Positions 16,871-50,673 of a stretch of DNA of 64,000 nt are shown here, in pieces. The notes beneath the pieces were generated by a model. That model worked only from the letters and a program-made list of their open reading frames with translations, was not told where the DNA came from and did not search any database. The stretch is from an uncultured Candidatus Saccharibacteria bacterium (GTDB lineage Bacteria; Patescibacteriota; Minisyncoccia; Phycocordibacterales; UBA9973): assembly GCA_964402895.1 (NCBI GenBank), contig CAYODR010000002.1, forward strand, positions 41,666 to 105,665. Direction: 5' to 3'. A program made the position numbers and the translations under genes. Positions within the stretch are counted from its first letter, which is position 1. Each line of letters begins with the position of its first letter.

Positions 16871-16924
16871 CCAATTGATTATTTGATTTTACCAGTATTA
16901 TTCAAAAAAACAACCTATAAAATA

Positions 16925-27779: not shown

Positions 27780-27783
27780 AAAA

Positions 27784-28388: not shown

Positions 28389-28415
28389 ATTCTTTCTAAT
28401 TTTAATTATTTAAAA

Positions 28416-28440
28416 AACCGCTCCAGCGGTTTTTTAAATA
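28416..28440 (-). terminator. terminator downstream of map
   Basis: aaaaaaccgctccagcggttttttaaa. Confidence 0.6.
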
Positions 28441-33137: not shown

Positions 33138-33527
33138 CTACCAAATTTTAAATAATACCTCTCCTCCGACCTGTTCTTTCTTTGCTTGCTTATCACTCAA
33201 AATTCCTTTTGGAGTTGATAATACAGTCAAACCATATCCATTTTTAACTGGACGAATTTCTTTTACGCCAGCATAGATACGACGAGAAGGTTTTGAAACA
33301 CGAGCTACGTCGTGAATTTTTGCGCCTTTTTCGTTGTACGCTAGTGCGATTTCAATAACGGGAACGTTATTTTTTTCTGTCTTTTTTGAAACGTTCTCTA
33401 CGAAGCCATGCTCTTTCAAGCATTCTGCAATAGAAAACTTCATCTTTGAAAAAGGTACAACAACACGGTCTTTTGACACCATTGATGCATTTTTCATTGA
33501 TACTAACATGTTTGCGATTGGATCCAT
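33138..33527 (-). CDS. rpsH: 30S ribosomal protein S8
   Basis: 129 aa; MDPIANMLVSMKNA N-terminus typical of S8. Confidence 0.9.
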   Translation of the reverse strand: MDPIANMLVSMKNASMVSKDRVVVPFSKMKFSIAECLKEHGFVENVSKKTEKNNVPVIEIALAYNEKGAKIHDVARVSKPSRRIYAGVKEIRPVKNGYGLTVLSTPKGILSDKQAKKEQVGGEVLFKIW

Positions 33528-33541
33528 ATATTTTTACTTTT

Positions 33542-33727
33542 TTACCAAGAAGACTTGCGAATGCCCGGAATCATGCCCTCATTAGCAAGTTCACGGAAGC
33601 AAATACGACATAGTCCAAAATCACGCATAAAGCCATGTCGACGACCACAGCGGAAGCAGCGATTCACAGCGCGAGTACTATATTTTGGTGCCTTTTGGGC
33701 ACGAGCTATAACTGATTTCTTTGCCAT
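33542..33727 (-). CDS. rpsZ: 30S ribosomal protein S14 type Z (zinc-binding)
   Basis: 61 aa; CxxC...CxxC zinc ribbon (CFRCGR...CRIC). Confidence 0.9.
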
Positions 33728-33978
33728 AATTCTTTTAATTTAAATAATTCTCAATGCAATATCTCACACCCCCTTCTTAGACATCATTAAAAATGAAGAG
33801 AAAGAAAGAAATATGGATTACAAAGAGTGCTAAAATACTAACAAAATAAAGCCTTTTTGTCAATTTGAGAACCTTAAATTATTTTATAAAACAAGAAAAA
33901 TCTATTTTTATTCCAAATGCTCCGTATCTTGCCTATGTATTTGGAAGAGAATGTATTATGTCTTATGTATAAAGAATG

Positions 33979-34797
33979 CTAGGCGGCACAGCGTACATGG
34001 CCGGAACTGGTAGTAGCGCCCCTGTACACACCACCATCAGGGAAATACTGGTTGTAAGCGTAGGAGCTTGCTGACAGAGTAGACGACCAATAACCGTCTG
34101 CAAGGAACCCAAGGTTTGTCGTCTCAGATTCACCTTGCGCTCCATAGTCATTGATAGCTTTTAGTATTTCTATTGATGGAAGTCTCTTGCCTGCTGTAGC
34201 GCATCTGTCCATAGCTACTTGCCAATTAGTAGCACCACCATTATCTGCAGAATCAAGAGTGACAACTCCTGTAGTGTCAACTGCGTAGTGTGTTTCGTTA
34301 AAATATACAGCTACACCGAAGTTCTTAGTCTCAAGAGAATCTGCTGGTATAAAATGTGTAGCTCCAGTACTTGGTACAGAAGCAGTACGTACAATACATC
34401 TAACATTGTTTGCTCCTGCAATACTTGTAAGTGCATCTATCATAGGCTGGATTGACGAATGGTATCCTTGAGGAGTACCTAGGGCTGCATAATTATTTAG
34501 ATTTGAAACTTGTCCGCATAATCCTGCAAAAGTACCATTGTCTAGGTGGTATAGTTGTGCTTGAGTTTGAAAGTTTTTAAGATTTGATTTGATTGCTGCT
34601 ACTCTTCCACTTGTTCTGGCTGAGTTTAAAGATGCGATGACGACTCCTGCAAGGATACCTATGATTGCTATTACTACTAGAAGCTCAATGAGCGTGAAGG
34701 CTTTATTTTTATTATTAAAAATTTTTAGCGCAGAGAAGCTCTTTTTAAAATAGCACCCCCCTATTTGTATTTTTGGATGGAAGGTTAATTTTTTCAT
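33979..34797 (-). CDS. type IV pilin-like protein with C-terminal FGE/CLec-fold DGR variable-region scaffold (paralog of 24547..25338)
   Basis: N-terminal ~115 aa nearly identical to the other copy (MKKLTFHPKIQIGGCYFKKSF...KAFTLIELLVVIAIIGILAGVV). C-terminal ...GKRLPSIEIL...DGYWSSTLSASSYAYNQYFPDGGVYRGATTSSGHVRCAA. Inserted between rpsZ and rplE. Confidence 0.75.
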   Translation of the reverse strand: MKKLTFHPKIQIGGCYFKKSFSALKIFNNKNKAFTLIELLVVIAIIGILAGVVIASLNSARTSGRVAAIKSNLKNFQTQAQLYHLDNGTFAGLCGQVSNLNNYAALGTPQGYHSSIQPMIDALTSIAGANNVRCIVRTASVPSTGATHFIPADSLETKNFGVAVYFNETHYAVDTTGVVTLDSADNGGATNWQVAMDRCATAGKRLPSIEILKAINDYGAQGESETTNLGFLADGYWSSTLSASSYAYNQYFPDGGVYRGATTSSGHVRCAA

Positions 34798-34851
34798 GTT
34801 TTTATTATAACATTTATATTTTTTTCAACAAAGACAAAATGTAAAAAACAA

Positions 34852-34876
34852 AAAACCGCTTGATGCGGTTTTTTGT
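34852..34876 (-). terminator. terminator downstream of rplE
   Basis: aaaaaaccgcttgatgcggttttttg. Confidence 0.6.
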
Positions 34877-35410
34877 TTAAGCCTCTTTCTTAAAAGGCAT
34901 TCCTAGATATTCAAAGAATTTTGTTGCTTCTGATTTATCTTTTGCACTTGTTACAAGTGTGATAGATAGACCAAATACATCTCTTAAATCTTCATCAGAA
35001 GTTTCTGGGAAGATAGTGTTTTCTTTAATACCCAAAGTCATGTTTCCAATACTGTCTACTGACTTTTTATCAATTCCTCTAAAGTCTTTTGTACGAGGAA
35101 GCGCTATATGAATAAGCTTATCAAGGAAATGAAGCATTCTTGCTCCGCGTAGTGTTACAGTTAGACCGATTGGATCACCCTCACGAATCTTAAAACTTGC
35201 AACTGATTGTTTTGCTACACGAAGAGATGGTTTTTGTCCTGTGATTTTTGCTAGACGGTCAGCGATAAGATTATTTCTTTCTCTGTCCTTTTTCATACCA
35301 CTACCAGTACCACTTGAAACTACGATCTTTAGAAGTTTTGGAGCAGAAAGTTTGTTTTTATAACCGAAAACTGAATTTGTGTTTTCTTGTTTTGTTTTAG
35401 TAATTTGCAT
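34877..35410 (-). CDS. rplE: 50S ribosomal protein L5
   Basis: 177 aa; operon position after rplX. Confidence 0.9.
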   Translation of the reverse strand: MQITKTKQENTNSVFGYKNKLSAPKLLKIVVSSGTGSGMKKDRERNNLIADRLAKITGQKPSLRVAKQSVASFKIREGDPIGLTVTLRGARMLHFLDKLIHIALPRTKDFRGIDKKSVDSIGNMTLGIKENTIFPETSDEDLRDVFGLSITLVTSAKDKSEATKFFEYLGMPFKKEA

Positions 35411-35414
35411 AAGC

Positions 35415-35723
35415 CTATTTTATAGTTTGATTACTTTTCTTTGCAAAACGAACGACCTTTCCGTCTTCAACTCTTTTTCCAATACGTGTTCCTGAGCCTG
35501 ACTTACTATCTACAAGCATTACGTTTGATGCATGGATTGGAGCTTCTACCTCTACAATAGAACCTTGTTGTCCACGAGTACGAGCTTTCATATGTCTTTT
35601 AGTTTTGTTTACTCCATCGATAATAACACGATCTGTATCTCTAAAAACTTTTGCTACTGTACCTTTCTCGCCCTTATTTTTACCTGCGATAACTATTACA
35701 TTGTCTCCTTTCTTGATTTTCAT
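35415..35723 (-). CDS. rplX: 50S ribosomal protein L24
   Basis: MKIKKGDNVIVIAGKNKGEKG KOW motif. Confidence 0.9.
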   Translation of the reverse strand: MKIKKGDNVIVIAGKNKGEKGTVAKVFRDTDRVIIDGVNKTKRHMKARTRGQQGSIVEVEAPIHASNVMLVDSKSGSGTRIGKRVEDGKVVRFAKKSNQTIK

Positions 35724-35734
35724 ATAAAAACTCC

Positions 35735-36106
35735 TTATAGCACTTCTGGTGCAAGTGATGCTATTTTCTGATAACCAAGCTCACCTATTTCTCTAGGTAT
35801 TGGCCCGAATATACGACCTGCTTTTGGTTCTTTCTTAACTTTATCAACTAGAACCACAGCGTTATCATCAAAACGAATGTATGATCCATCTTTTCTTCTA
35901 AATGCTTTCTTTTGGCGCACAACTATACCATATACGATATCTTTTTTCTTTACTGGTTTTCTAGGTTCTGCCACCTTTACTGATAGTACAACCTTATCAC
36001 CAATCTGTGCATAACGACGCTTTGATCCACCTAGAACCTTAAAAATCTTGCCGATTTTACCGCCACCGTTGTCTGTTATTTTTACTACTGTTCCTGCTTG
36101 TAACAT
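35735..36106 (-). CDS. rplN: 50S ribosomal protein L14
   Basis: 123 aa; MLQAGTVVKITDNGG... ; operon position. Confidence 0.9.
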   Translation of the reverse strand: MLQAGTVVKITDNGGGKIGKIFKVLGGSKRRYAQIGDKVVLSVKVAEPRKPVKKKDIVYGIVVRQKKAFRRKDGSYIRFDDNAVVLVDKVKKEPKAGRIFGPIPREIGELGYQKIASLAPEVL

Positions 36107-36112
36107 AATCCT

Positions 36113-36355
36113 TTATTTAATGATAGTAAATCTTTTATCTTTTGAGATAGGACGACCTTCTTGAATAGACACCTTATCACCAATCTTAGAAGCATTATCT
36201 TCGTTATGTGCTTTATATTTTTTAGTTATTTTAAAATACTTTTGGTATTTTGGGTGCTTCACAAAACGAGTTACTGCAACAACAGCTGTTTTATCCATTT
36301 TATCTGAAACAACTGTTCCATTTAGTATTCTTTTGTTATTTCTATTTGTAGTCAT
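36113..36355 (-). CDS. rpsQ: 30S ribosomal protein S17
   Basis: 80 aa; GTVVSDKMDKTAVVAV...; 44-nt gap to rplP leaves no room for rpmC (L29). Confidence 0.9.
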   Translation of the reverse strand: MTTNRNNKRILNGTVVSDKMDKTAVVAVTRFVKHPKYQKYFKITKKYKAHNEDNASKIGDKVSIQEGRPISKDKRFTIIK

Positions 36356-36399
36356 AATTAAGTATTTTTATAGTACTTGTTTTTTGTATTTTGGCAAGC

Positions 36400-36816
36400 C
36401 TAAACACGAGAAACAACGCGTGTTTTGATTGGTAATTTTGTGCCAGCTTTTCTCAAAGCTTCTCTTGCAACAGCCTCATCGACACCATCAACTTCAAAGA
36501 TAATACGACCAGGAAGAACTTCTACATGGTAGCCTTCCAAATCACCCTTACCTTTACCCATCGGTTGTTCAGCTGGTTTTGTTGTAAATGGTCTATCAGG
36601 AAAAATCCTGATCCACATCTTACCTATTTTTGTAAGATGACGATTTGCCGCCTTACGAGCTGCCTCTATTTGGTTTGATGTCACACGTCCTAGTGTTTCG
36701 GCTTTTAAACCAAATGAACCAAAGTTTATTTCAGTCCCACGAGCAGCCACACGATTAGTCATATCGGTGCGCTTCTTTTGCCATTTTCTGAATTTTACTT
36801 TCTTTGGAAATAACAT
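36400..36816 (-). CDS. rplP: 50S ribosomal protein L16
   Basis: 138 aa; [16 protein letters not shown]. Confidence 0.9.
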
Positions 36817-36826
36817 AAATTAACTC

Positions 36827-37504
36827 TTACTTTTTAGCTTCTTTGCTATCATTAAATACTTGACCTTTATAAATCCAAACCTTGATACCGATACCTCCGT
36901 ATGCAAGTCTTGCTGTCTCTCTTGCATAATCAATATCTGCACGAATTGTCTGAAGTGGAATAGAACCACGCTTTAGCTCTTCTGAACGAGCAATTTCTGC
37001 TCCTCCAAGACGACCTCCAACATAGAATTTTACTCCTTGAACACCACGAACAGCCATAACTTTTTCAATGATAGTTTTCATGACTCTTCTATAAGGCATT
37101 CTTTTTTCTAGTCCTTCTGCAATCATATACGCTACGATTTTTGCATCAGCATCTGGATTTGCTACTTCTACTATTTCAAGTTTGAGTTCATCCGCTGATA
37201 CATTTAAGTCTGCGCGCTTTAAAATTTTAAGAAGATCTGTTTTAAGTTTTGTCGCTCCTTCACCAGATCTACCAATAACCATTCCTGGTCTTGATGTTCT
37301 GATAATAACACGAATAGACTTTTGATCGCGTTCTATTTCTACGCTTGAAACATAAAAACCACGAAGCTTCTTGTCTAAATACTCTCTGATAGTTACATCT
37401 ACTGAGAGATTGTTTACATAATTTTTATCGGTAGCAAACCAGCGAGACTTCCAGTCACGGAGGATTACTAAACGATGTGAATAAGGGTGTACTACTTTTG
37501 TCAT
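36827..37504 (-). CDS. rpsC: 30S ribosomal protein S3
   Basis: 225 aa; KH domain GRSGEGATKLK. Confidence 0.9.
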   Translation of the reverse strand: MTKVVHPYSHRLVILRDWKSRWFATDKNYVNNLSVDVTIREYLDKKLRGFYVSSVEIERDQKSIRVIIRTSRPGMVIGRSGEGATKLKTDLLKILKRADLNVSADELKLEIVEVANPDADAKIVAYMIAEGLEKRMPYRRVMKTIIEKVMAVRGVQGVKFYVGGRLGGAEIARSEELKRGSIPLQTIRADIDYARETARLAYGGIGIKVWIYKGQVFNDSKEAKK

Positions 37505-37515
37505 ACTTCTTTAAA

Positions 37516-37854
37516 TTATTTCTTCTTAGCTGGAGCTTCACCTAGAGTAACCTCTACATGACTTGTGCGTTTATTGATACGCTTTGCGACTCCCATAGCG
37601 CGGGGCATTATACGCTTAAGCACAATACCTTTGTTAACCTCTATATTTTTGACAACTAGAGATTCTGGATTTACTCCGAGAATTTGTGCATTAGCAACAG
37701 CACTCTTAATGAGTTTTTGAATTGGTTCCGCTGCACGCTTTGGCATATAAGACAAAACAGTGTCAGCAGTTTCTATATTTTTGCCCTTTACAGCATCCGC
37801 TACTAAGCGAACCTTTCTTGGACTTTGGCGATAATTAGGAAGTGAAGCTTTCAT
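37516..37854 (-). CDS. rplV: 50S ribosomal protein L22
   Basis: 112 aa; operon position; SPRKVRLVAD. Confidence 0.9.
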   Translation of the reverse strand: MKASLPNYRQSPRKVRLVADAVKGKNIETADTVLSYMPKRAAEPIQKLIKSAVANAQILGVNPESLVVKNIEVNKGIVLKRIMPRAMGVAKRINKRTSHVEVTLGEAPAKKK

Positions 37855-37863
37855 ATATTAAAA

Positions 37864-38208
37864 TTATTTTTTCTTATCAGAAGTAGATGCCTTCGCTGCT
37901 CTTGCTGCTGCTATTTCTGATTCTTTCTTTTTCTGATCAAGCTCTTTTTGCATCTTACCTCCATGGCGTGTGAACTTACGAGTAGGTGAAAATTCACCCA
38001 GCCTGTGTCCGACCATATCTTCAGTAACAAGAACTTCTATGTGTTGACGACCGTTGTGTACTCCGAAAGTAAAACCAACCATTTCTGGAGCTATCTGACT
38101 GTCTCTTGACCATGTCTTAATAACACCAGCTGAAAGTGGCTGTTTTCCTTCGATTTTTTTAATTAGCTTTGGGTCAACATATGGACCCTTGTGTAGTGAT
38201 CTTGTCAT
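37864..38208 (-). CDS. rpsS: 30S ribosomal protein S19 (with lysine-rich C-terminal extension)
   Basis: Start trimmed to [12 protein letters not shown]; ORF-track N-terminal 22 aa are hydrophobic junk. Confidence 0.85.
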
Positions 38209-38289
38209 GATTTTAATAAAAAGAGGCTCTTTCTGAGCTGATGCATATATTAGCAAATTATAGATTAATGTCAAATATTTCCTCTATAT

Positions 38290-38685
38290 TTAAAAGATTA
38301 GCACCCAAATCTTAGGAAGAAAAATTATAAGTCCAATAATAAGCGCCCCAATTCCTGCTATGAGCACAGCTCCTGCTGCAACATCTTTTGAGTCTTTTGC
38401 ATATGGATGATATTCTGGACTACTTAAATCTACATCAAACTCTATTGCCGTATTAACAGCTTCAGTCACAAGTACACCCGATATAGCCAAAACAACCATA
38501 CACCACTCTACAGGGCTTATCTGGAGCCAAAAACCCATACATATGACTAGAATACCCACAGACAAATGTATCCATGAATTATGTTGAGTCAAAACTATAA
38601 CTCTTAAACCACGAAAGGCGTATTTAAAACTTCTTGCCCTTGCAATAATAGAGAATCTCTTTTTTTCTGGGATTAGATTGTTCAT
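38290..38685 (-). CDS. dgkA: diacylglycerol/undecaprenol kinase (DgkA family)
   Basis: 131 aa; RARSFKYAFRGLRVIVLTQHNSWIHL...EAVNTAIEFDVDLSSPEYHPYAKDSKDVAAGAVL matches prokaryotic DAGK; inserted between rpsS and rplB. Confidence 0.8.
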   Translation of the reverse strand: MNNLIPEKKRFSIIARARSFKYAFRGLRVIVLTQHNSWIHLSVGILVICMGFWLQISPVEWCMVVLAISGVLVTEAVNTAIEFDVDLSSPEYHPYAKDSKDVAAGAVLIAGIGALIIGLIIFLPKIWVLIF

Positions 38686-38768
38686 CTAAATATTATAACA
38701 CTATTTATTTTAAAGGTTCATAATGGTAACTAATTTTAATATTGTATTTTTGTATCTATAATAAAAAA

Positions 38769-39282
38769 CTAATTTGCTATTTTTACATAGTTTCCAGGAA
38801 TACTATTATTTAAAGAGGATTTTCTACAATTAAGATAGGTATCATATGACATATCTTCGCCAGATCCAGATTCTAGTCTAACAAAAATTATATATCTATC
38901 TACAGAACCAACGGGCGTACACCCCGTATAATCTCTTCTGTAATAAGCATACTCATGTGAATTTGGTAAACTTGAAATATATGGAGATAAAGAGTTAACT
39001 AGATTAGTTCTACCTGAATTACTTAAAAATCCTAAAGTTTCAGGGTAAATACCATTTTCAGCAAAATGCATTTCAAGTGCTGTTTGAATATTTTTAGCAG
39101 TAGCAAGCCTTGCGGCATCTCTCGCTTTACCTCTCGCACTATTTAAGCTTGCTATCACAACTGTTGCGAGTATTCCAATAATTGCTATCACTACTAATAG
39201 TTCTATCAGAGTGAAGGCTCTACTTTTTAGTGTATACCCCCCCCCCTATTTGTCTTTTAGAGTTTGCTGGTAAAATTTTCAT
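38769..39282 (-). pseudogene. type IV pilin-like gene, leader-peptide region frameshifted by a 10-nt poly-G tract (phase-OFF)
   Basis: ATG 39282 encodes MKILPANSKRQIGGG then the 10-G run (39237..39246) puts the pilin body (AFTLIELLVVIAIIGILATVV... from 39191) in another frame; removing one G gives MKILPANSKRQIGGGYTLKSRAFTLIELL. Confidence 0.65.
39237..39246. repeat. homopolymeric C10/G10 tract
   Basis: tataCCCCCCCCCCtattt. Confidence 0.85.
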
Positions 39283-39319
39283 GATTTTATTGTATCATAT
39301 TTTAATTTTACCCCACAAA

Positions 39320-39970
39320 TCAAATAGGTCCATTAGACATCCTATAATGAATAGCACCTGTAGATGTATAAGTTATTTTCCCACATCTTCTTTTTGTATT
39401 ATTATCCTCTGAAGATTCGTGCGGATCAAAAATATCATTAAGTTTATTAAAAATATCTAATAAAGAACTCTCTCCTGATGAAATAAAAAGATTAACTCCA
39501 TTAGTGGGAGCATTTGAAGTTGAGGCACAGGTTGAAACCTCATGGAAATTACCATCATTATCATACGCATAATTATTCCCATTATGAGGAAATGGAAACA
39601 CGGGCGCAGAAGAAAGATAATTTGAAAAATTAGTAGTATTTGAAGATATTGCTTGAGCTATAGATGGATTCGATGTACTTGAAGTTAAAGCATAAGTACA
39701 ATAAGTAGAAGCATGGCTATTTCTCTCTTTAGGCCAACAACCTGTTTCTAACAAAAGCATATTAAATGCCAATTCTATACTTCTTAGATCTGATGCAACT
39801 TTTGAAATTCTAGATTTCTCTCTTGCACTATTTAGACTTGCAATTACAACTGCAGCTAAGATTCCTATAATAGCTATCACTACTAGTAGCTCTATGAGGG
39901 TGAAAGCTTTTCTATAGGATGAATACCTAAATCTTATTTGCCTTTTAGAATCCGCCTGCAAATTTTTCAT
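39320..39970 (-). CDS. type IV pilin-like protein
   Basis: Start MKNLQADSKRQIRFRYSSYRKAFTLIELLVVIAIIGILAAVVIASLNSA; 216 aa; conserved upstream motif gtttttattataacat. Confidence 0.75.
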   Translation of the reverse strand: MKNLQADSKRQIRFRYSSYRKAFTLIELLVVIAIIGILAAVVIASLNSAREKSRISKVASDLRSIELAFNMLLLETGCWPKERNSHASTYCTYALTSSTSNPSIAQAISSNTTNFSNYLSSAPVFPFPHNGNNYAYDNDGNFHEVSTCASTSNAPTNGVNLFISSGESSLLDIFNKLNDIFDPHESSEDNNTKRRCGKITYTSTGAIHYRMSNGPI

Positions 39971-40133
39971 GTTTTTATTATAACATATAAAATACAAAGG
40001 TCCTTCGGGATCCATCTCCTAAAATGGAGATAGAAAAAGCTAGAGCATCAATGCTCTAATTTTTGTTTTTATATCTAAAAAATCTATTTATTGATATATT
40101 GATCTTTGGAATTTCTAACAAATACTAAAGCTT

Positions 40134-40238
40134 CGAAATACATTCCTATTTTTAGACACGGATAAATTTCTGCTGAAATTTTCCTGTTCTCGCGCCAGTA
40201 GCGCTGCGAAAGTCTAAAAATAGGAATGTATTTTTTCG
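40134..40238. repeat. large hairpin element: 22-bp perfect inverted repeat flanking ~58-nt loop with inner GC hairpin
   Basis: aaatacattcctatttttagac ... gtctaaaaataggaatgtattt; inner cgcgccagtagcgctgcg. Confidence 0.7.
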
Positions 40239-40259
40239 CTTTATTTCTTATACAAAACA

Positions 40260-40290
40260 AAAAAACCGCTGATGCGGTTTTTTGTTTAAT
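40260..40290 (-). terminator. terminator downstream of rplB
   Basis: aaaaaaccgctgatgcggttttttgtt. Confidence 0.6.
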
Positions 40291-40291
40291 A

Positions 40292-41137
40292 TTATCTCTT
40301 TCCGTTTTTGCGGCGAGCAACAATATTTTTGTTTGAGTACTTCTTCGGAGTTCTTGTACGCACACCGTAAGCTTGCTTACCGTGACGAGTCTTAGGGCCA
40401 CGACGAAGACCAATACCTTGTTTTTGTTCACCTCCACCATGTGGGTGATCTACCGGGTTCATGGCAGTACCACGAACTGTAGGACGGATACCTTTCCATC
40501 TTGAACGACCCGCTTTACCGAGTTTTACAAGTTTGTGTTCACTGTTTGATACTTCACCAACAGATGCCCATGCTGTGTTTTGAACACGGCGGATTTCTGT
40601 TGAAGGCATCTTAAGCTGAGTATATCCATCTTGTTGAGCTACAACTTGAGCATAACTTCCTGCACTTCTTACAAGTTTTGCACCTGCTCCTGGTTTGATT
40701 TCTATATTGTATACAAATGTACCAGAAGGAATATTTTTAAGCGGAAGACGATTGCCTGTTTCAACAGGAGCGTTTTCAGATACGATAAATGTATCTCCCA
40801 CCTTTACAGATCCTGGAAGTACCACATATCTTTTTTCACCATCAGCATATACAGCTACTCCAATAAATGCACTTCTGTTTGGATCGTATTCTACTGTAGA
40901 GATTTTTGCAGGAATATCGTGTTTGTTGTAGAAAAAGTCTACAAGACGATAAAGTCTTTTATTTCCTGATCCTTTATGAGGAACAGTAATTCTACCCATA
41001 TTATTGCGGCCAACATGACGCTTACGCCCTAATGTCAAAGACTTTAGAGGTGTATCTGTAGTAAGTACTTTACGATAATCAATCGTAACTGTATTACGGC
41101 GAGATTTTGTAGTTGGTTTATATGTTTTCATTGCCAT
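40292..41137 (-). CDS. rplB: 50S ribosomal protein L2
   Basis: 281 aa; GRNNMGRITV..HKGSG, HPHGGGE motifs. Confidence 0.95.
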   Translation of the reverse strand: MAMKTYKPTTKSRRNTVTIDYRKVLTTDTPLKSLTLGRKRHVGRNNMGRITVPHKGSGNKRLYRLVDFFYNKHDIPAKISTVEYDPNRSAFIGVAVYADGEKRYVVLPGSVKVGDTFIVSENAPVETGNRLPLKNIPSGTFVYNIEIKPGAGAKLVRSAGSYAQVVAQQDGYTQLKMPSTEIRRVQNTAWASVGEVSNSEHKLVKLGKAGRSRWKGIRPTVRGTAMNPVDHPHGGGEQKQGIGLRRGPKTRHGKQAYGVRTRTPKKYSNKNIVARRKNGKR

Positions 41138-41141
41138 AAAA

Positions 41142-41447
41142 TTATGCGATATCTACTGTTACTCCTTTTGGAAGGAATACATATGCTTTCTTACCAAAAG
41201 TACCTTTTCCTAACTGACCACGACGGAAATAAGTCTTTGGGATTGAATTTACTGTGTTAACCTTAACTGGTTTTTTGTTGTATTTTGCTTGAAAAGCTTT
41301 TGCGATTTCACTTTTAGTTGCACCTACTGCCACATTAAAAGTGTAGATACTATACTGAGAGTTATTTGCGGCCTTTTCAGTAATGCGAGCATCTTTAAGA
41401 ATCACATTTTTTACAACTTCTTCTTTTTTTGTTTCTTTTTTTGCCAT
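41142..41447 (-). CDS. rplW: 50S ribosomal protein L23
   Basis: 101 aa; operon position. Confidence 0.9.
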   Translation of the reverse strand: MAKKETKKEEVVKNVILKDARITEKAANNSQYSIYTFNVAVGATKSEIAKAFQAKYNKKPVKVNTVNSIPKTYFRRGQLGKGTFGKKAYVFLPKGVTVDIA

Positions 41448-41464
41448 ACCTTAACTCTTTATAA

Positions 41465-42172
41465 TTATTTAATCTTAGCCTCTAAAGACTTAATTGATTC
41501 TTCTGGATTAACCACAACAATCGTATTGAAAGTTGAAGCATTTAGTGCGTTTAATTCTGATGCCGTAATCACAGTAACACCTGGAAGGTTAGCAAAACTC
41601 TTTACAAGAATTTCTTCCTTTTCTGGTACTACCATAAGAACTCCTGTTTTCTTTTTTGTATCAACTCTTTCAAAACCTTCAATTTTAGCAAGAGTACTCA
41701 TAACTGATGAAGCATCTTTTGTTTTGATTTCACCAAATAGAATATTGTCTACAAATAATATTTGACTATCAACGAATCTTTTTGAAAGTACTGTAAATAG
41801 AGCTTTCACTCTCATTTTTTTGTTGATTTTCTTTGAATAGTCTTTTTCATTTCTAGGGCCGAAAGTTGTTCCTCCGCCTACCCAGATAGGAGATCTATTT
41901 GATCCATGACGAGCACGTCCTGTACCTTTTTGTTTCCATGGTTTTTTACCACCACCTGAAACCTCACCTCTATCTTTTGTGTGAGCAGTACCAGCACGCA
42001 TGTTTGATTGCATTCCTACAATCACTTGGTGTACCAAGTCTCCATTCCAAGCAAGACCGAAAATATTTCCTGGAATACTGATTTTACCAGCATCTTTTCC
42101 TTTTTGGTTATAGAGTGTTGCAGATAGTTCTACATTTTCTACCTTTTTTGATTTTGTTGTTTCTTTTTTCAT
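41465..42172 (-). CDS. rplD: 50S ribosomal protein L4
   Basis: 235 aa; operon position; GTGRARHGS motif. Confidence 0.9.
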   Translation of the reverse strand: MKKETTKSKKVENVELSATLYNQKGKDAGKISIPGNIFGLAWNGDLVHQVIVGMQSNMRAGTAHTKDRGEVSGGGKKPWKQKGTGRARHGSNRSPIWVGGGTTFGPRNEKDYSKKINKKMRVKALFTVLSKRFVDSQILFVDNILFGEIKTKDASSVMSTLAKIEGFERVDTKKKTGVLMVVPEKEEILVKSFANLPGVTVITASELNALNASTFNTIVVVNPEESIKSLEAKIK

Positions 42173-42182
42173 ATTTCAACTC

Positions 42183-42794
42183 TTAACCAATTATTTGTAC
42201 AACTGTTCCACGACGACCAGCAATAGCACCACTTATAGCGATGATATTTTTTTCTGTATCAACAGAAACAACCTTCAGACCTTTTACAGTCACAGTGTCG
42301 CCCCCTGTTCTACCCGCCATGCGCATACCTTTTACAACACGACCTCCAGCTCTTCCTGGACCTCCACCAATAGAACCCGGTTCTCTTTCTGAGTGTTTTT
42401 GACCGTGTGATCTAGGACCTCCAGCGAAATTGTGTCTTTTAACAACACCTTGAAAACCTTTTGCTTTTGATGTACTTGTCACAGTTACAGCATCACCTGG
42501 TGTAAAAGCATCTACAGAAACAACATCACCGATATTTTTATCAATGTTTGCATCTTTAAATTCTTTTATAGTCTTATAGCCTTTTCCGCCAAAAGCACCT
42601 AGCTGAGCTTTATTCACGCGACTTTCTTTTTGTTCTTCAAAACCAAGAACAACAGCACTATAGCCATCTCTTTCAAGAGTTTTGATACCTGCAACTACGT
42701 TTGGAGTCGCTTCCACAAGCGTAACAGGTGTAACACGACCGTTTTCATCGAAACGTTGTGTCATTTCTATCTTTTTTCCTAATATATATTTCAT
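42183..42794 (-). CDS. rplC: 50S ribosomal protein L3
   Basis: 203 aa; FQGVVKRHNFAGGPRSHG motif. Confidence 0.9.
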   Translation of the reverse strand: MKYILGKKIEMTQRFDENGRVTPVTLVEATPNVVAGIKTLERDGYSAVVLGFEEQKESRVNKAQLGAFGGKGYKTIKEFKDANIDKNIGDVVSVDAFTPGDAVTVTSTSKAKGFQGVVKRHNFAGGPRSHGQKHSEREPGSIGGGPGRAGGRVVKGMRMAGRTGGDTVTVKGLKVVSVDTEKNIIAISGAIAGRRGTVVQIIG

Positions 42795-42929
42795 AATTTA
42801 TGTTCATGCCCCTTGCTGATTATGATAATTTAGCAAGTTTTGGGTATTGGACCATTGCAAATAGTATTAAATGCAAGTGGGTATGATTATACACATTTTT
42901 TTTTAAATCGCAATATCTAAATCATTAGC

Positions 42930-43640
42930 CTATTTACCACATAAAACTCTTCGAATTAGCGTTTTATCCTCAAGAACAGTTGATCCATTATCAAGCCTAA
43001 TCCTAAAAGCTGTATCAGCACTAACAGAAGTCCCTGACCAATATTGAACACTTGATGCATAATTTGCATTGTGAATATCAAATAAAGCTTTCATAGAAGA
43101 TACTCCTGGAACCCTTTTGCTAAGTGACGCACAATAAGCCAATGCCCCATCAAAAGTATAACTGGAAACAGAGCTTGCACTATCTAACTCTAAAATCCCA
43201 TGAGGGTCAGCAGTATAATTAATATCTCTATATAGCACGCCTATACCGAAATCTATTGAATTTAGAGTAGCGCTCCCGATATAACAATTTGCATTTGATA
43301 TAACATTTAGAGAATCTAAAATTGAAACAATTTTTTGATCATTACACAAACCAGCATAAGAACCATTATTATCTAAATAATACACATGTGCTTGAGACAC
43401 CGCATTTCTTAAATTAGATTTAATCGCTGCTATTCTCCCTCTATCTCTTGCACTGTTTAATGACGCTATCACTACCCCCGCAAGTATTCCTATAATTGAG
43501 ATGACGACTAAGAGTTCAATGAGAGTGAAAGCTTTACTTTTTATTGTATACCTCCCCATAGAATTTTTGAAAAATTGATTAACTTTTTCATTGGTTTTAT
43601 TATAACATTTAATAATTTCAAAAAGAAACCTTATCTTCAC
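42930..43640 (-). CDS. type IV pilin-like protein (start uncertain: 43640 or internal MGRYTIKSK at 43559)
   Basis: KAFTLIELLVVISIIGILAGVVIASLNSARDRG...; conserved MKKL-type leader ATG (43591) is out of frame at the GGGGAGG tract. Confidence 0.7.
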   Translation of the reverse strand: MKIRFLFEIIKCYNKTNEKVNQFFKNSMGRYTIKSKAFTLIELLVVISIIGILAGVVIASLNSARDRGRIAAIKSNLRNAVSQAHVYYLDNNGSYAGLCNDQKIVSILDSLNVISNANCYIGSATLNSIDFGIGVLYRDINYTADPHGILELDSASSVSSYTFDGALAYCASLSKRVPGVSSMKALFDIHNANYASSVQYWSGTSVSADTAFRIRLDNGSTVLEDKTLIRRVLCGK

Positions 43641-43792
43641 TCTGTGTTTAGAAAAAAAATAATAACGACAAAGAAAAATTTGTCTCTATTTTATCAAATT
43701 ATTGACCTTTTTAGATATATATGATATAATTAGATATGAAATAGGTGATTTCTCATACCTGTAAGTTGAGATAAATTTTAACAACCAAATAA

Positions 43793-44404
43793 ATGAAAAA
43801 GATTTTATTCTTAGTTTTCGGCGTGCTGGGAATGTTTTTGATTACAACCCTCGGGAGTTGTGAAGGACAGAAACAAAAAGGTTCAAATACCTTTGAAGTT
43901 GAAGTATCTCTTGATACTACAGTGTTTTTCCAAACACCGGTTACAGCCCCTCGCTGGGACTGCAACGGTAACTTACTCCCCGAGCCAAAACTTATTGGAA
44001 GCGAAATCCGTGAAGAAAATATTCAACTCACACGGACTGTTACGATAAACGAAGATGGACAATTAATCTCCAGCGGAGATTATGTATACCCGGTAAAGGT
44101 ATACTCGCCTGATGTCCAGCCCAATATTTGGAGGATGGCTGAAAATCCAATTCTTGGAGTACTGTATTTTTTGGTTCTTCTTACGCTCGTGGCTTTATTA
44201 TTTTTATTTTTCATCTGGCTAATAAAACAAATTATCCAAATGTTGAATAATGATTCTAATCGGTCTCAAGCAGTACCCGAAACGAAGACGGTAGTCCAAG
44301 AAATCACTAAGGAAAAACCGAATTCAGAACCTGAACAACCCGAAAAAAGTGTAGAAATAAAATTCTACAAAAACGGGAAAATCAAAACCCTGAGAATAAC
44401 ATAA
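43793..44404 (+). CDS. hypothetical lipoprotein/membrane protein
   Basis: Signal peptide with LGSC lipobox-like motif, internal TM helix; 203 aa. Confidence 0.45.
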   Translation: MKKILFLVFGVLGMFLITTLGSCEGQKQKGSNTFEVEVSLDTTVFFQTPVTAPRWDCNGNLLPEPKLIGSEIREENIQLTRTVTINEDGQLISSGDYVYPVKVYSPDVQPNIWRMAENPILGVLYFLVLLTLVALLFLFFIWLIKQIIQMLNNDSNRSQAVPETKTVVQEITKEKPNSEPEQPEKSVEIKFYKNGKIKTLRIT

Positions 44405-44538
44405 ATATTCAAAGTTTTGACCCAAAAAGTCTTGTGTAGTATGCACAAGACTTTTTTTCTTGCCTATTATTTTTGTTTTTTAAATAAAAATAGATTTTAT
44501 ATAAAATCTTCAATATTTAAGTTAGCGTCTTTTATTAT

Positions 44539-44710
44539 CCTAATTATAAAGTCCTTTCTTAATTTCTCTATTATGAATAGGAACTATGATTAAGGGGTGA
44601 CCACTTTTTTTAAATATTTTATGACTTCCTTTTTGTCTGATAAATACAAAACCTGATTTTTCTAAAATCTTTACTAAATCCTTATCTAAAATCGGATGAA
44701 ACTTAGGCAT
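44539..44710 (-). pseudogene. hicA: HicA family toxin gene with +1 frameshift
   Basis: MPKFHPILDKDLVKILEKSGFVF then frame shifts; HicA core RQKGSHKIFKKSGHPLIIVPIHNREIKKGLYN continues in next frame; overlaps hicB stop. Confidence 0.6.
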
Positions 44711-44927
44711 TTACAAGTACATTACCAATAATAGGCATAGAGGTATTGTAGTTTTCTCCTAATTCTTCAAGATAAAGCTCTATAGCTTCAATTATATTTT
44801 TTTGAGCTTCTTCAAAAGTTTCTCCTTGACTATAGCACCCTGGTAATCCAGCTACAGACACAACAAATCCTCCTTCTTCAGATGGTTCATATAACACAGT
44901 AAAAAGTTTTTCCTTTTTAATTTCCAT
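44703..44927 (-). CDS. hicB: HicB family antitoxin (UPF0150)
   Basis: 74 aa; FVVSVAGLPGCYSQGETFEEAQKNIIEAIELYLE hallmark motif. Confidence 0.8.
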   Translation of the reverse strand: MEIKKEKLFTVLYEPSEEGGFVVSVAGLPGCYSQGETFEEAQKNIIEAIELYLEELGENYNTSMPIIGNVLVNA

Positions 44928-45009
44928 ATTAAAATACTGACATATTTAAAAGAAAAACTCAACTAAAAAACAAGAATCCCCCGAACGACATGTTCGGGGG
45001 GAGTATTCC

Positions 45010-45294
45010 CTAAAATCTTCTATGGCATGGTTCCCATTTCCACTTACCATTATTTTTTATAAAAAAGAACGAAGTATTTTTAAACCAAATACGAACTTTC
45101 TTATAATCGCCAGAAAACATTTCATAAACACCGACTGGTTCACCCAATACGATCCTAAGAATTTCATAAAGATTTTCTTCATCTTTTTTTTGTAAAATTC
45201 CTAAAATTTTTTTAGCCCTGTGTTGTTTAAGAAAAAACTTTACTAACAGCAGTAAAACTATTACTGCTGTTAGTAGGAGTAAAACTATTTCCAT
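45010..45294 (-). CDS. hypothetical membrane protein
   Basis: 94 aa; single N-terminal TM. Confidence 0.4.
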   Translation of the reverse strand: MEIVLLLLTAVIVLLLLVKFFLKQHRAKKILGILQKKDEENLYEILRIVLGEPVGVYEMFSGDYKKVRIWFKNTSFFFIKNNGKWKWEPCHRRF

Positions 45295-45411
45295 TTTGTT
45301 TGGGGTTAAAATTAAACTTTAATTTAATGATATCATATAAATTCTAATCTGTCAATAGTATAGATATATACTCAAAGACAAAAATCCCCTTTCGGGGATT
45401 TTTGTTTTTGA

Positions 45412-45819
45412 CTACATCATCTTTACATCGATATCAACACCAGATGGCATTGAAAGATTGGTCAGAGCTTCAATCACTTTTGGTGATGGGTTCTCAATAT
45501 CAATCAATCTCTTATGAACTCTCATTTCAAATTGTTCACGAGAATCTTTATAAATAAATGTAGAACGGTTTACAGTATACTTCTTGATTTCAGTTGGCAA
45601 AGGAATCGGTCCACGAACTACTGCATCATAGCGTGTAGCTGTATCTATTATTTGTTTTACTGAAGAATCAAGAATTTTATTTTCATAAGCGCGTACTCTA
45701 ATGCGAAGCATTGATTGTACTGCGTCTTTTGAAGCTTTAGTTTTTGCTGTTTTTGCTACCATTTTATAAGGAACTCGGTAAGAATTCTTTGGAATATATG
45801 TGAGTTCTAATGTTTTCAC
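45412..45819 (-). CDS. rpsJ: 30S ribosomal protein S10 (N-terminal extension or alternative start at 45762/45708)
   Basis: Core LRIRVRAYENKILDSSVKQIIDTATRYDAVVRGPIPLPT...HKRLIDI. Confidence 0.85.
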   Translation of the reverse strand: MKTLELTYIPKNSYRVPYKMVAKTAKTKASKDAVQSMLRIRVRAYENKILDSSVKQIIDTATRYDAVVRGPIPLPTEIKKYTVNRSTFIYKDSREQFEMRVHKRLIDIENPSPKVIEALTNLSMPSGVDIDVKMM

Positions 45820-45860
45820 CTATATCTTATCACTTCAAACCATTAAACTATTTTATAGGC

Positions 45861-47051
45861 TTAAGCAACAACTTTCGTTACCACTCCGGCACCTACAGTA
45901 CGACCTCCTTCACGGATAGCGAAGCGCATTTGATCTTCAACTGCTACAGGTACAACAAGCTTAACCTTGATTTTCACAGTATCACCTGGCATAACAAGAT
46001 CTACTCCTTCTGGAAGAGACACTTCACCAGTAACATCTGTTGTACGGATGTAGAATTGAGGTTTGTAACCATTGATGAAAGGAGTGTGTCTACCACCTTC
46101 TTCTTTCTTCAAAACATAGATTTCACCTTCAAATTCTGTGTGAGGAGTAACTGAACCTGGTTTCGCAAGAACTTGTCCACGAGTTAGGTCTTCTTTCTTC
46201 ACACCGCGAAGCAAGATACCTGCGTTGTCACCTGCTTGACCTTGATCAAGAGATTTGTTGAACATTTCAATACCAGTAACAGTTGTTTTTGCAGTATCTT
46301 TAATACCAACAATTTCAATTTCTTCACCAACTTTTACGATACCTCTTTCAACACGACCTGTTACCACAGTACCTCTTCCTTCAATAGAGAAGATATCTTC
46401 GATAGGCATAAGAAATGGCTTATCTGTATCTCTTTCTGGAAGTGGGAAATAGTTATCAAGTGCATCTGCTAATTCAGAAATCTTTTGTGCCCATGGGTCA
46501 TCCATAGATGTTGCTTCAAGACCTTTAAGAGCTGAACCGCGGATGATAGGACAATCCTTATCAAAACCTTGTTTCTCTAGGATTTCACGGATTTCTTCTT
46601 CTACAAGTTCGATCATATCTTGATCTTCTACAAGATCACATTTGTTTAGGAATACGATCATCTTTGGAACACCAACTTGTTTTGCAAGAAGGATGTGCTC
46701 ACGAGTTTGTGGCATTGCACCATCTGTCGCTGCCACCACAAGGATAGCACCGTCCATCTGAGCAGCACCAGTAATCATGTTCTTGATGTAGTCCGCGTGA
46801 CCAGGAGCATCAATGTGCGCATAGTGACGAGTAGGTGTTGAGTACTCGTTGTGAGAAATGTTGATAGTAATACCACGAGCTTTTTCCTCAGGTGCACCAT
46901 CAATTTCATCAACCTTTTTCATTTTTACATCTTCACCTCTTAGGTTAAGGACGTGAAGGATAGCCGCACTTAAAGTTGTTTTACCGTGGTCAACGTGACC
47001 AAGTGTACCAACGTTTACGTGTGGCTTTGAACGATCAAAAGCTTCAGCCAT
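45861..47051 (-). CDS. tuf: elongation factor Tu
   Basis: 396 aa; [21 protein letters not shown]. Confidence 0.95.
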
Positions 47052-47206: not shown

Positions 47207-47452
47207 TTATGCAACGGATTTGATTCCTAAAGCTGTTTCTGCTCTGTCTATCTTACCCAATAGCTCTGAAAGATTTAATTCATCAAAATCTTTATGGATT
47301 TCGGGTGTGACAGTAGTAGCCACGCCATCAAAACTACCCACCTCATTAAGAATAGTAATGACTTCATTTCTAAGTTCTGAGTTTTTTTCAATTAGAGACT
47401 CTTTACTCTCAGCTTTAATCTCTTGATTGTTTAAAAAATTTTCTTTTTCCAT
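47207..47452 (-). CDS. hypothetical small acidic protein
   Basis: 81 aa ORF between fusA and tuf. Confidence 0.35.
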   Translation of the reverse strand: MEKENFLNNQEIKAESKESLIEKNSELRNEVITILNEVGSFDGVATTVTPEIHKDFDELNLSELLGKIDRAETALGIKSVA

Positions 47453-47456
47453 AATT

Positions 47457-47627
47457 TTAACTTTTTTCTTCTTGAGCTTTTAAAAATTCTTCTTTGATGC
47501 GATTTAGATATTTTTTCATCACATTATAAGAAAAGGCTATTTCTTGTAAGAGTTCTACTTCTTCTGCTTCCGTAGCTTCTCCATATTGAACTTTTTCTAT
47601 AAGCTCATCCATTTTCGCTTGATCCAT
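47457..47627 (-). CDS. hypothetical small protein (56 aa)
   Basis: Manual translation MDQAKMDELIEKVQYGEATEAEEVELLQEIAFSYNVMKKYLNRIKEEFLKAQEEKS; 4 nt upstream of previous ORF. Confidence 0.3.
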   Translation of the reverse strand: MDQAKMDELIEKVQYGEATEAEEVELLQEIAFSYNVMKKYLNRIKEEFLKAQEEKS

Positions 47628-50040: not shown

Positions 50041-50045
50041 TCATG

Positions 50046-50363
50046 TGTTGTACTAGTAAGCCGAATTCTGTTTAAATGATTATTTATCTAGGATGTAAAT
50101 TACTCTACACCTCAAGCGACACTCCAGAATAAATCTGGCACGGCCTTGCACACAAGTAAGGATTTAGCCGTTTCAATTTTATAGTTACCTATAAAGCTTA
50201 TCCCAAATGGGATACCTCTACCTTTCGGTTTTGGCGTCTCTGTTCGCACCTCGCACCTTGCGATGGATGGGTATTACCCACTACTCTGCTCCTTGATAAA
50301 TCAAGGGTGTGTTCGGACTTTCCTCACATAACCTAAAGCTATGCGCAATCAAACAGTACAACC
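50046..50363 (-). ncRNA. rnpB: RNase P RNA (bacterial type A-like, reduced)
   Basis: On minus strand: P4 strands GAGGAAAGTCCGAACAC (50325..50309) and ACAGAATTCGGCTTAC (50072..50057); GGTGCGAGGTGCGAAC P10/11-like block; P1 pairing TTGTACT/AGTACAA at ends; GC content well above flanks. Confidence 0.8.
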
Positions 50364-50399
50364 ATTATTACTTTACTTGAAATGAGTTAAAAGTAAAGA

Positions 50400-50672: not shown

Positions 50673-50673
50673 A

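Follow-up and report, generated by a model that had tools for sequence, protein, structure and literature searches.

Insertion of a few genes between neighboring translation-cluster operons, with occupancy that varies among descendants, is known from the 'invasion' stage of the invasion-separation model of Gammaproteobacteria and Bacilli (PMC8046335). A comparable arrangement is found in the str-S10-spc ribosomal-protein cluster of a 64,000-nucleotide stretch of contig CAYODR010000002.1 (the window, about 34% GC), from a Patescibacteria (candidate phyla radiation, CPR) genome of the Paceibacteria or 'Nomurabacteria' type. Four type IV pilin genes, all co-oriented with the ribosomal genes, lie at three of its junctions, rplE/rpsZ, rplB/rpsS and rpsJ/rplC, in the company of dgkA, a HicAB pair, a lipobox protein, a small membrane protein and a large hairpin; a fifth pilin gene lies elsewhere in the window. 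The locus resembles the described invasions in the few genes inserted and in their varying occupancy. It differs in that those invasions fall between the classical operons (rpoBC/str, str/S10), whereas in model bacteria rplB|rpsS and rplE|rpsZ fall inside the S10 and spc operons; moreover, the sites described here recur across a whole class and are bounded by terminators, promoters and leaders of their own.

Neisseria is known for pilE/pilS antigenic variation and for poly-G phase variation of pilC. The window shares with it multiple pilin copies, a conserved N terminus with a variable C terminus, apparent segment exchange between paralogs and a frame-shifting G run in the signal-peptide region. 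Unlike the Neisseria system, every copy here has a promoter, with no silent promoterless copies, no G4 or recombination-initiation element was identified, and the G run may be a sequencing artefact. A second parallel is with the variable proteins of diversity-generating retroelements (DGRs) (PMC8144416; PMC11661182). Like these, the Lcl_C-type pilins of the window are predicted to end in a C-terminal C-type-lectin fold whose fixed scaffold is dotted with about 20 hypervariable codons, and the family that they resemble, DUF1566/Lcl_C, is a known C-type-lectin-fold target of DGRs (PMC11661182). As in the CPR-specific DGR clade, the host organism belongs to the CPR and a DGR-type reverse transcriptase (RT), here decayed, adjoins the target. 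CPR DGR targets are typically without recognizable transmembrane or other domains (Roux 2021; PMC8144416), whereas the putative target described here is joined to a prepilin signal and a pilin helix, and the window has no template repeat (TR) or intact RT. In Bacteroides, as outlined in a preprint (bioRxiv 10.1101/2024.11.15.621889), DGRs diversify type V pilus tip adhesins; this would likewise be retroelement-driven diversification of an adhesive pilus component, although in that outline the pilus is type V rather than type IV-like, the phylum is another and the DGR is intact. Lcl of Legionella, a collagen-like trimeric adhesin that binds glycosaminoglycans (PDB 8q4e; PMC11162425), belongs to the Pfam family that the pilin tip resembles, Lcl_C, and its C-terminal domain is the top structural match of the modelled tip, but here the domain is fused to a pilin helix.

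CPR bacteria are thought to attach to hosts by type IV pili, and how their host recognition varies is poorly understood. The locus brings together 'soft spots' of the cluster that are fixed across a class, lectin-like pilin tips with the marks of hypermutation, and what appears to be a new operon-end element. Our interpretation, to which we assign a probability of roughly 0.7, is that the cluster consists of separate transcription units whose spacers gather cargo that turns over, here recombining pilins with DGR marks. Ribosomal-protein blocks are routine phylogenetic markers and synteny anchors in metagenome bins, and in these lineages variable, recombining cargo within them can break assemblies or mislead binning.

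Operon boundaries and cargo turnover

The str-S10-spc genes of the window run on the minus strand in the canonical order rpsL, rpsG, fusA, tuf, rpsJ, rplC-D-W-B, rpsS, rplV, rpsC, rplP, rpsQ, rplN-X-E, rpsZ, rpsH, rplF-R, rpsE, rplO, secY, adk, map. Pfam matches, open reading frames (ORFs) and folding bear out the gene content that a first-pass annotation had read at the three pilin-bearing junctions (four pilins, dgkA, hicB plus a frameshifted hicA, a lipoprotein, a membrane ORF and a hairpin; Table 1), as well as the minus-strand co-orientation of all the pilins with the ribosomal genes. That annotation placed insertions at these three junctions, which is correct for those three, but rpsG/fusA, fusA/tuf and the region after map also carry accessory genes. 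It further gave each pilin its own terminator. Window sequence and folding reveal no terminator-like hairpin after pilin 1, 2, 3 or 4 or after dgkA; the strong U-tract hairpins sit instead upstream of the cargo, immediately after rplE, rplB and rpsJ. The units ending at these intrinsic terminators and at that of map would be followed by a restart at a sigma-70-type promoter and leader ahead of rplC, rpsS and rpsZ. The cluster of this Paceibacteria lineage would then be a chain of autonomous transcription units rather than a single superoperon, and genes inserted between a terminator and the next promoter would not be polar. The terminators that follow rplE, rplB and map are nearly the same in sequence. 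Each is symmetric, an A-tract on one flank facing a T-tract on the other, and might work in either direction.

Sequence conservation of the rplC and rpsZ leaders extends over six or seven relatives, with inner hairpins that are variable and covarying, and together with the rpsS leader they are candidate ribosomal-protein autoregulatory leaders of the genus-level clade. The three leaders, like the junction hairpin described below, have no match in Rfam (the window at the gathering threshold; positions 33500-46000 at E<=1, with chance-level matches only).

The best match to the window's rplB was 75% identical among contigs of species-representative genomes and 72% identical among metagenome contigs. 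Closer relatives, with rplB 83-95% identical, were reached through a large protein database and contigs, giving nine loci (L161 to L169). All nine carry dgkA at rplB/rpsS, as do the more distant L001 and L012. In the nearest locus, L161 (rplB 95%), dgkA stands alone between rplB and rpsS, and pilins 2 and 3 and the hairpin are therefore specific to the window's lineage. L162 (rplB 88%) has one pilin at rplB/rpsS and, at rplE/rpsZ, a further two that are short; at rplE/rpsZ a pilin-Lcl_C gene is also carried by L169, which shares its sample of origin with L161; L163, L164 and L166 have no pilins at either junction; and L165, L167 and L168 have unrelated ORFs there. The rpsJ/rplC junction is gene-free in all nine loci (170-350 nt), which makes the window genome the only one with the 2.6-kb insert of five genes. 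Relatives free of cargo still have the terminator after rplE, rplB and rpsJ and the promoter with its conserved leader before rpsZ, rpsS and rplC (the rpsJ terminator keeps its position in L162 and L163, both without cargo at that junction), and the operon breaks are therefore older than the cargo. An assembly chimera was ruled out: the same junction architecture occurs in independent assemblies (L162, L169).

The synteny comparison proposed in the first-pass annotation thus found the pilins variable, present in L162 and L169 and absent from L161, L163, L164 and L166, with no single fixed arrangement. An ancient fixed arrangement, named there as the outcome that would speak against a landing site, was not found for the pilins and was found for dgkA (9/9 close loci), which is an old, fixed resident of rplB/rpsS. 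That all the inserts are old and vertically inherited, without ongoing dynamics, gains some support from dgkA, from conservation of the first small ORF at fusA/tuf and from the pilin-Lcl_C gene that both the window genome and L169 hold at rplE/rpsZ. However, pilins 2 and 3 and the hairpin are missing from a 95% relative, L163 and L164 lack pilins at both junctions, the L162 pilins are different and shorter, the rpsJ/rplC cargo occurs in this genome alone, and the positional ortholog of pilin 1 in L169 is 66% identical, against 82-96% for the adjacent ribosomal proteins. Synteny refutes a fixed arrangement for the pilins and for the rpsJ/rplC insert and upholds it for dgkA; as a general account of the inserts we consider it very unlikely.

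For a wider comparison, 24 cluster genes were located by tblastn in 160 loci (122 non-Paceibacteria and 38 Paceibacteria-like) and every junction was measured, a gap of >300 nt being scored as open. The junctions had been described as normally tight, and in other bacteria this is so: rplB/rpsS was open in 0/116 and rplE/rpsZ in 1/83, with median gaps in non-Paceibacteria of 15 and 9 nt, respectively. Among the Paceibacteria-like loci, in contrast, rplB/rpsS was open in 18/28 and rplE/rpsZ in 12/18, with gaps of up to 4.4 kb, and nearly all other junctions were closed. At fusA/tuf the counts were 10/12 for Paceibacteria-like loci vs 2/25 for other bacteria, and rpsJ/rplC was open in 5/22 Paceibacteria-like loci. 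Paceibacteria junction cargo includes dgkA, dihydroorotate dehydrogenase, orotidine monophosphate decarboxylase, a deaminase, a PilB-type ATPase, MazF, HicA and YafQ toxins, rplJ-rplL, a response regulator, a sortase, an L,D-transpeptidase, a reverse transcriptase and a complete DGR; pilins account for 1/85 ORFs. The idea of the cluster as a landing site for the pilin family survives insofar as these are hot spots with pilin turnover, but the sites accept any cargo and are pre-existing operon boundaries. The spacers would be lineage-wide collecting points in which accessory genes turn over between relatives, and colonization by a recombining pilin family with DGR-type marks appears specific to this genome and its nearest relatives. 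The rplJ-rplL pair (L10, L7/L12) lies inside the rplB/rpsS junction of L008 (11644-12523); ribosomal operons themselves can, it appears, relocate into Paceibacteria spacers.

Pilins might also have been recruited for function, that is, selected within the cluster for growth-rate coupling or for a highly transcribed, leading-strand, origin-proximal site, with pilin promoters perhaps feeding the ribosomal block. Nine of nine junction pilins (window and relatives) are co-oriented with the ribosomal genes, and in about 0.6 Mb of Paceibacteria loci all pilin matches lie within the two junctions and none in the flanks. Pilins and the ribosomal blocks that follow them have no terminator in between, and any read-through would run from pilin promoters into those blocks, not from ribosomal promoters into the pilins. 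Most relatives, however, have other cargo or none at these junctions, pilin 5 and the paralog P0002 are located elsewhere, and each downstream block has a strong promoter of its own; we think recruitment rather unlikely. Also unlikely is a scheme in which the spacers are insulated expression bays bounded by a hitherto undescribed structured terminator/insulator, diversified pilins and whole DGRs are recruited time and again and swapped from bay to bay by recombination, the repertoire of pili is coupled in transcription to ribosome synthesis as the binding tips hypermutate, and proteins joining a prepilin to a C-type lectin (prepilin-CLec) are the missing 'recognisable' class of CPR DGR targets.

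Pilin cassettes and DGR-type marks

The prepilin motif [KR]-[GA]-F-T-L-I-E-L, with Glu5 and a hydrophobic helix, is present in pilins 1, 2, 4 and 5 and, after frame repair, in pilin 3; residue -1 of the window prepilins is Ala, not Gly. The Pfam family N_methyl scores 29.6-37.1 bits for pilins 1, 2, 4 and 5 (cutoff 21.2; 36.9 for pilin 1 and 29.8 for pilin 4). No PilD/PilB/PilC-type machinery genes were found in the window, and a PilB-type ATPase gene lies in the rplX/rplE junction of L010; assembly of the pilins on type IV-like machinery is putative. In an AlphaFold model of pilin 1 (pLDDT 78.5), a helix spanning residues 36-87 is followed by an alpha/beta head. The C terminus matches Lcl_C (E=6e-7); PF07603 (Lcl_C/DUF1566) scores 30.2 and 30.0 bits against a gathering score of 34.9, and the precomputed Pfam annotation of the protein database lists PF07603 for the pilin 1 protein. 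In the PDB the tip is matched best by 8q4e, the C-terminal domain of Legionella Lcl (Foldseek E=3.7e-4, target TM 0.59, root mean square deviation 2.8 Å), with 8oks, LOX-1 and CD94 also among the top matches. Going by the model, the tip is a C-type-lectin-like fold. Pilin 4 (database protein P0041, 209 aa) has a C-terminal domain whose likeness to Lcl_C is by eye only.

Each pilin had been credited with a conserved upstream motif, GTTTTTATTATAACAT. The motif is exact at pilins 1 and 2 (34798, 39971) and at pilin 5 (25339), but has one mismatch at pilin 4 (43593) and three at pilin 3 (39283); the window holds 16 matches with <=3 mismatches vs 5.3 expected. On the coding strand it reads ATG-TTATAAT-AAAAAC-ATG, which corresponds to an extended -10 box (TGnTATAAT) 6 nt before the ATG, a geometry of leaderless mRNAs, and the spacing leaves no room for a Shine-Dalgarno sequence. 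The arrangement TGTTATAAT-N6-ATG occurs at pilins 1, 2 and 5 and at dgkA (there as TGTTATAAT-ATTTAG-ATG), the same -10/ATG geometry is found at adk, tpiA, recJ, rnhA, ftsH and others, and the junction pilins and dgkA of relatives have it as TGTTATACT-N6-7-ATG. Indeed, 25 sites of the form TAnAAT-N5-8-ATG start ORFs of at least 60 aa in the window vs 0.42 expected, and 11 have the extended -10 form vs 0.03 expected. Being common to about 25 genes of the window, the motif would therefore be the organism's general promoter and leaderless-start architecture, kept identical among recent pilin paralogs, and not a signature of insertion. Pilins and dgkA would accordingly be read as leaderless transcripts, and the locally expanded pilin family as minimal promoter-plus-gene cassettes.

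Homology between pilins 1 and 5 begins about 25 nt before the ATG and ceases about 10 nt beyond the stop codon, the first 250 nt being near-identical and the rest diverged; the duplicated unit appears to be promoter plus gene, without terminal repeats. Exchange after duplication is indicated by the rplE/rpsZ junction of L169. Its non-coding flanks (33847-33978 and 34798-34917) are 95-98% identical to those of the window and the ribosomal genes 78-90%, and the pilin ORF is a mosaic in which patches of 37-60% identity with indels lie between blocks of 80-92%. The L169 pilin has a leader of the pilin 2/3 type, and its body is 88% identical to P0002, a paralog that the 106-kb contig of the window encodes at another place, vs 72% to pilin 1. 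Leader type and body together therefore point to exchange of coding segments between paralogous pilin loci: the copies would arise by duplication, and their coding parts would be replaced by paralog recombination inside a fixed regulatory frame. Strong regulatory constraint could account for the high identity of the flanks, and so could recombination between lineages in the recent past.

The pilin tips bear marks of a kind expected from DGRs. A DGR-type RT remnant lies just downstream of pilin 5; its N-terminal ~141 aa are 33% identical to the RT of L011 (E=1e-25; residues 9-148, and weakly 301-322). The closest homolog of the remnant is also short (217 aa) and lies on another genome's 236-kb contig with pilin-Lcl_C paralogs. 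Ahead of the RT homolog P0269 lies 'YWSSTENNTNNAWNQNFSNGTQNNNNKTNTNYVRCVR', in which the C-terminal scaffold of the pilins recurs saturated with Asn; a translated template repeat would be expected to look like this. Moreover, L011, of Zambryskiibacteria type, holds a complete DGR inside its rplE/rpsZ junction (14816-17429), in which a 125-nt repeat, present as the variable region (VR) at the 3' end of the target ORF and as the TR upstream of the RT, has 11/11 mismatches at adenines of the RT-proximal TR.

Sequence variation in the pilins has the same character. The bodies of P0006 and P0008 are 98% identical and their last 43 residues 63%. Residues unreachable from AAY codons (K/E/Q/M/W) make up 3.5% at hypervariable C-terminal columns vs 13.6% at hypervariable body columns (p=8e-8). 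Between pilin 1 and its L169 counterpart, differences at codon positions one, two and three number 36/30/79 in the body and 12/10/2 over the final 41 codons (p=1.4e-5, odds ratio 13); in the tip, that is, synonymous sites are frozen and positions 1 and 2 scrambled. The GC-rich invariant 3' end (CGCTGTGCCGCC-TAG) may resemble the conserved end of a variable region. The Lcl_C-tip pilins would be, or recently have been, targets of DGR rewriting of about 20 C-terminal codons, and such tips would fit variable adhesins for host attachment; DGR activity on them may still be current. No TR was found in the 64-kb window, where a sensitive blastn search with the 3'-terminal parts of pilins 1, 4 and 5 returned the pilin 1/pilin 5 pair alone, and on the 106-kb contig no intact RT of this family was detectable, only the remnant. 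The pilin-Lcl_C genes would be DGR-type targets with a decayed local DGR, not members of an active one. Matches in viral contigs were to the generic pilin helix only.

The reading frames of pilins 3 and 4 are broken at a homologous position, where pilin 1 has G6. In pilin 3 the break is a G10 run at 39237-39246, and G9 would restore the frame and give 170 aa. In pilin 4 the pilin frame is missed by the ATG at 43591 but opened by an internal ATG at 43559, giving MGRYTIKSKA|FTLIELL. These breaks raise the possibility of slipped-strand phase variation at a G run in the leader-peptide coding region, with a subset of pilins expressed at once, and it fits this view that the window has just two G/C runs of at least 7 nt. 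Each interrupts a gene, which points to either homopolymer sequencing error or contingency loci. The second run, G9 at 12023-12031 on the plus strand, coincides with the frameshift of an ORF ('...NIQKFTGVGGG' / 'RSKARACQGLDIYIDDDLDKIIPL...') that is apparently ordinary, as a homopolymer sequencing or assembly error would have it, and the shift in pilin 4 is outside any long homopolymer. Phase variation is thus possible but on balance doubtful.

Several considerations weigh against the picture of separate units with turnover cargo and DGR-marked pilins. The nearest relatives are about 10% diverged in protein, and single gain or loss events are not polarized with certainty. The five pilin genes in the relatives' loci are too few to prove that pilins prefer the spacers to other parts of the genome. 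Leaderless starts, like termination efficiency and read-through, are predictions from sequence, and flanks more conserved than coding DNA may stem from the inter-lineage recombination mentioned above. Neither a TR nor an intact RT exists in the window or was detected on the 106-kb contig, which makes the case for DGR action on pilin 1 indirect; strong positive selection after recent gene conversion might mimic the codon-position pattern.

A candidate structured element at transcription-unit ends

The hairpin of the rplB/rpsS junction (z=-9.3) has a 32-bp closing stem and a 54-nt conserved three-way-junction core. A second copy follows the map terminator directly, in the opposite orientation; the apical cores of the two are about 80% identical, and their closing stems (32 and 28 bp) both pair and have no sequence in common. 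With a third copy from L162, the consensus is a long stem opening into a three-way junction. A covariance model built from these three copies, R1, identified five more strong members (E<=3e-9) in loci of Paceibacteria; the ribosomal loci of other bacteria, 1.39 Mb in all, gave no credible match. In an alignment itself fitted to R1, 25/29 pairs have double-sided changes and 97.9% of cells are paired; shuffles reached this in 0/500 cases, and slid-register controls collapse. The closing stems of the three L006 members are A-tract/T-tract palindromes, so the element resembles an intrinsic terminator with an elaborated loop. We propose that it represents a previously undescribed family of structured elements, with stems of 22-32 bp free in sequence and a core of about 54 nt, that marks transcription-unit ends in either orientation. 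It could serve as a terminator/insulator, as an RNase III-type processing site (given stems of 22-32 bp) or as a small RNA, or be a small element lodging in palindromes. A miniature inverted-repeat transposable element was rejected: the arms are repeated nowhere and differ wholly between copies while the core is conserved.

Palindromes that keep their structure while their stems vary in sequence, at cassette boundaries and in both orientations, recall integron attC sites and palindrome-targeting elements, and with them the idea of site-specific capture by a dedicated recombinase that recognizes the motif or the hairpins, in the manner of attC or hairpin-targeting insertion sequences. A sequence of 16-30 nt is indeed repeated at the 5' end of all pilin cassettes, structured palindromic elements with variable stems share their spacers, and the rplE, rplB and map terminators are near-identical. 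Unlike attC, however, the hairpins conserve the apical core and vary at the stem ends, the reverse of attC, and they coincide with transcription-unit ends, including pilin-free junctions (L006, L166, L167). The repeated sequence is explained as promoter plus start codon and is present at the unrelated dgkA and adk. Paralog homology runs from the -10 box to the stop codon, and neither repeats nor target duplications flank it. The window contains no integrase or transposase and does not qualify as an integron, which would have an integrase gene and attC sites with conserved R/L boxes. Transposon or integron capture was rejected on the missing recombinase and on paralog homology that stops at promoter and stop codon; site-specific capture in any form seems to us highly improbable.

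Other cargo and neighboring features

Table 1. Coordinates of the junctions, predicted signals, cassettes and structured elements (window positions unless a locus is named)
Feature	Position	Strand	Description
rpsJ/rplC junction	rpsJ 45762-45412; rplC 42794..	-	Membrane ORF, hicB, hicA, lipobox protein, pilin 4
rplB/rpsS junction	rplB 3' end 40292; rpsS 38208-37864	-	Hairpin, pilin 2, pilin 3, dgkA
rplE/rpsZ junction	rplE 35410-34877; rpsZ 33727-33542	-	One pilin
Intrinsic terminator directly 3' of rpsJ	45380-45412	-	Inverted repeat; -28.5 kcal/mol, U-tract; would end the tuf-rpsJ unit
Terminator directly 3' of rplB	40255-40287	-	AAAAAACCGC-loop-GCGGTTTTTT; near-identical to rplE and map terminators
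Terminator directly 3' of rplE	34846-34878	-	98% identical in L169
Terminator of map	about 28410-28440		
Second terminator ahead of pilin 2	40059-40040	-	
rplC promoter and leader	42795-42913	-	Promoter TGTGTATAAT; conserved structured 5' leader; kept in 6/7 relatives
rpsS promoter and leader	38209-38274	-	TTGACA-16-TAATAT; short conserved leader hairpin then U-run (leader 38209-38250)
rpsZ promoter and leader	33728-33863	-	TTGACA-17-TAGTAT; conserved structured 5' leader (33728-33840)
Pilin 1 cassette	33979-34813	-	Motif 34813-34798, ATG 34797, 272 aa; rplE/rpsZ
Pilin 1 hypervariable C-terminal ~41 codons	about 34101-33982	-	
Pilin 2 cassette	39320-39986	-	Motif 39986-39971, ATG 39970, 216 aa; rplB/rpsS
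Pilin 3 cassette	38769-39298	-	TGATACAAT-N6-ATG at 39282; gene 39282-38769; rplB/rpsS
Pilin 4 cassette	42930-43608	-	Extended -10 box 43608-43593, predicted leaderless ATG 43591; rpsJ/rplC
Pilin 5 cassette	24547-25354	-	Close pilin 1 paralog, identical motif; not at the three junctions
DGR-type RT remnant	23972-24511	-	179-aa ORF, 35 nt downstream of pilin 5; catalytic region deleted
L011 DGR	L011 15373-15497; 15882-16006; 16455-17429		VR within target ORF; TR; RT
dgkA	38290-38700 (gene 38685-38290)	-	DAGK_prokar, PF01219 119.4 bits, profile 1-102 of 102
94-aa small membrane ORF	45010-45294	-	Promoter TTGACA-17-TATCAT (45355-45327), terminator 45000-44978; no Pfam family
hicB antitoxin	44703-44927	-	HicB_lk_antitox 42.6 bits
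hicA toxin	44488-44710	-	HicA_toxin 57.3 bits, profile positions 2-48 of 58; ORF 44710-44540
Lipobox (LGSC) protein	43793-44404	+	203 aa, C-terminal transmembrane helix; no Pfam family; lipobox read from sequence
rpsG/fusA cargo	50041-50364; 50400-50672; about 50670-50890	-	RNase P RNA (105.5 bits); ParE-like toxin; upstream antitoxin-like ORF
fusA/tuf cargo	47207-47627	-	Two small acidic ORFs, 56 and 81 aa; no Pfam family
Junction hairpin, copy 1	40126-40243	-	rplB/rpsS
Junction hairpin, copy 2	28279-28388	+	Directly after map terminator
Junction hairpin, copy 3	L162 11795-11873		rplB/rpsS
Hairpin members	L166 3324-3402; L167 4115-4189		Between dgkA and rpsS promoter
Hairpin members	L006 5270-5339; 10854-10934; 19738-19811		14 nt after rplB; 19 nt after fusA; 7 nt after secY

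Both families of the HicAB pair were matched, but hicA is not intact: it is frameshifted near codon 52, and three-frame translation places the C-terminal '...IIRIIKDANLNIEDFI' in another frame. The lipobox protein is the sole cargo gene on the opposite strand. The rpsG/fusA junction measures 49-389 nt in relatives. At fusA/tuf, the first small ORF has counterparts of 63-73% identity in the same place in L162, L163 and L165; it is probably a real uncharacterized gene and would be an old resident.

After map, accessory genes stand in place of the infA-rpoA block. They include an AbiEii nucleotidyltransferase toxin with a DUF6922 partner (27159-28050, minus strand) and a HigB/RelE-like toxin (25761-26033, plus strand). 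Within the cluster, L29 (rpmC) is missing between rplP and rpsQ (36356-36399; 45-nt gap), the gap is similarly short in L161 to L169, L001, L010 and L012, and L30 is likewise missing from the window cluster; loss of uL29 in some CPR lineages has been published (PMC9297842). ARAGORN identified a tRNA-Ser with anticodon ACT (10205-10294, plus strand) and a tRNA-Ile with anticodon TAT (16796-16870, minus strand). Neither anticodon is usual in bacteria, and Rfam models likewise score the two genes as tRNA.

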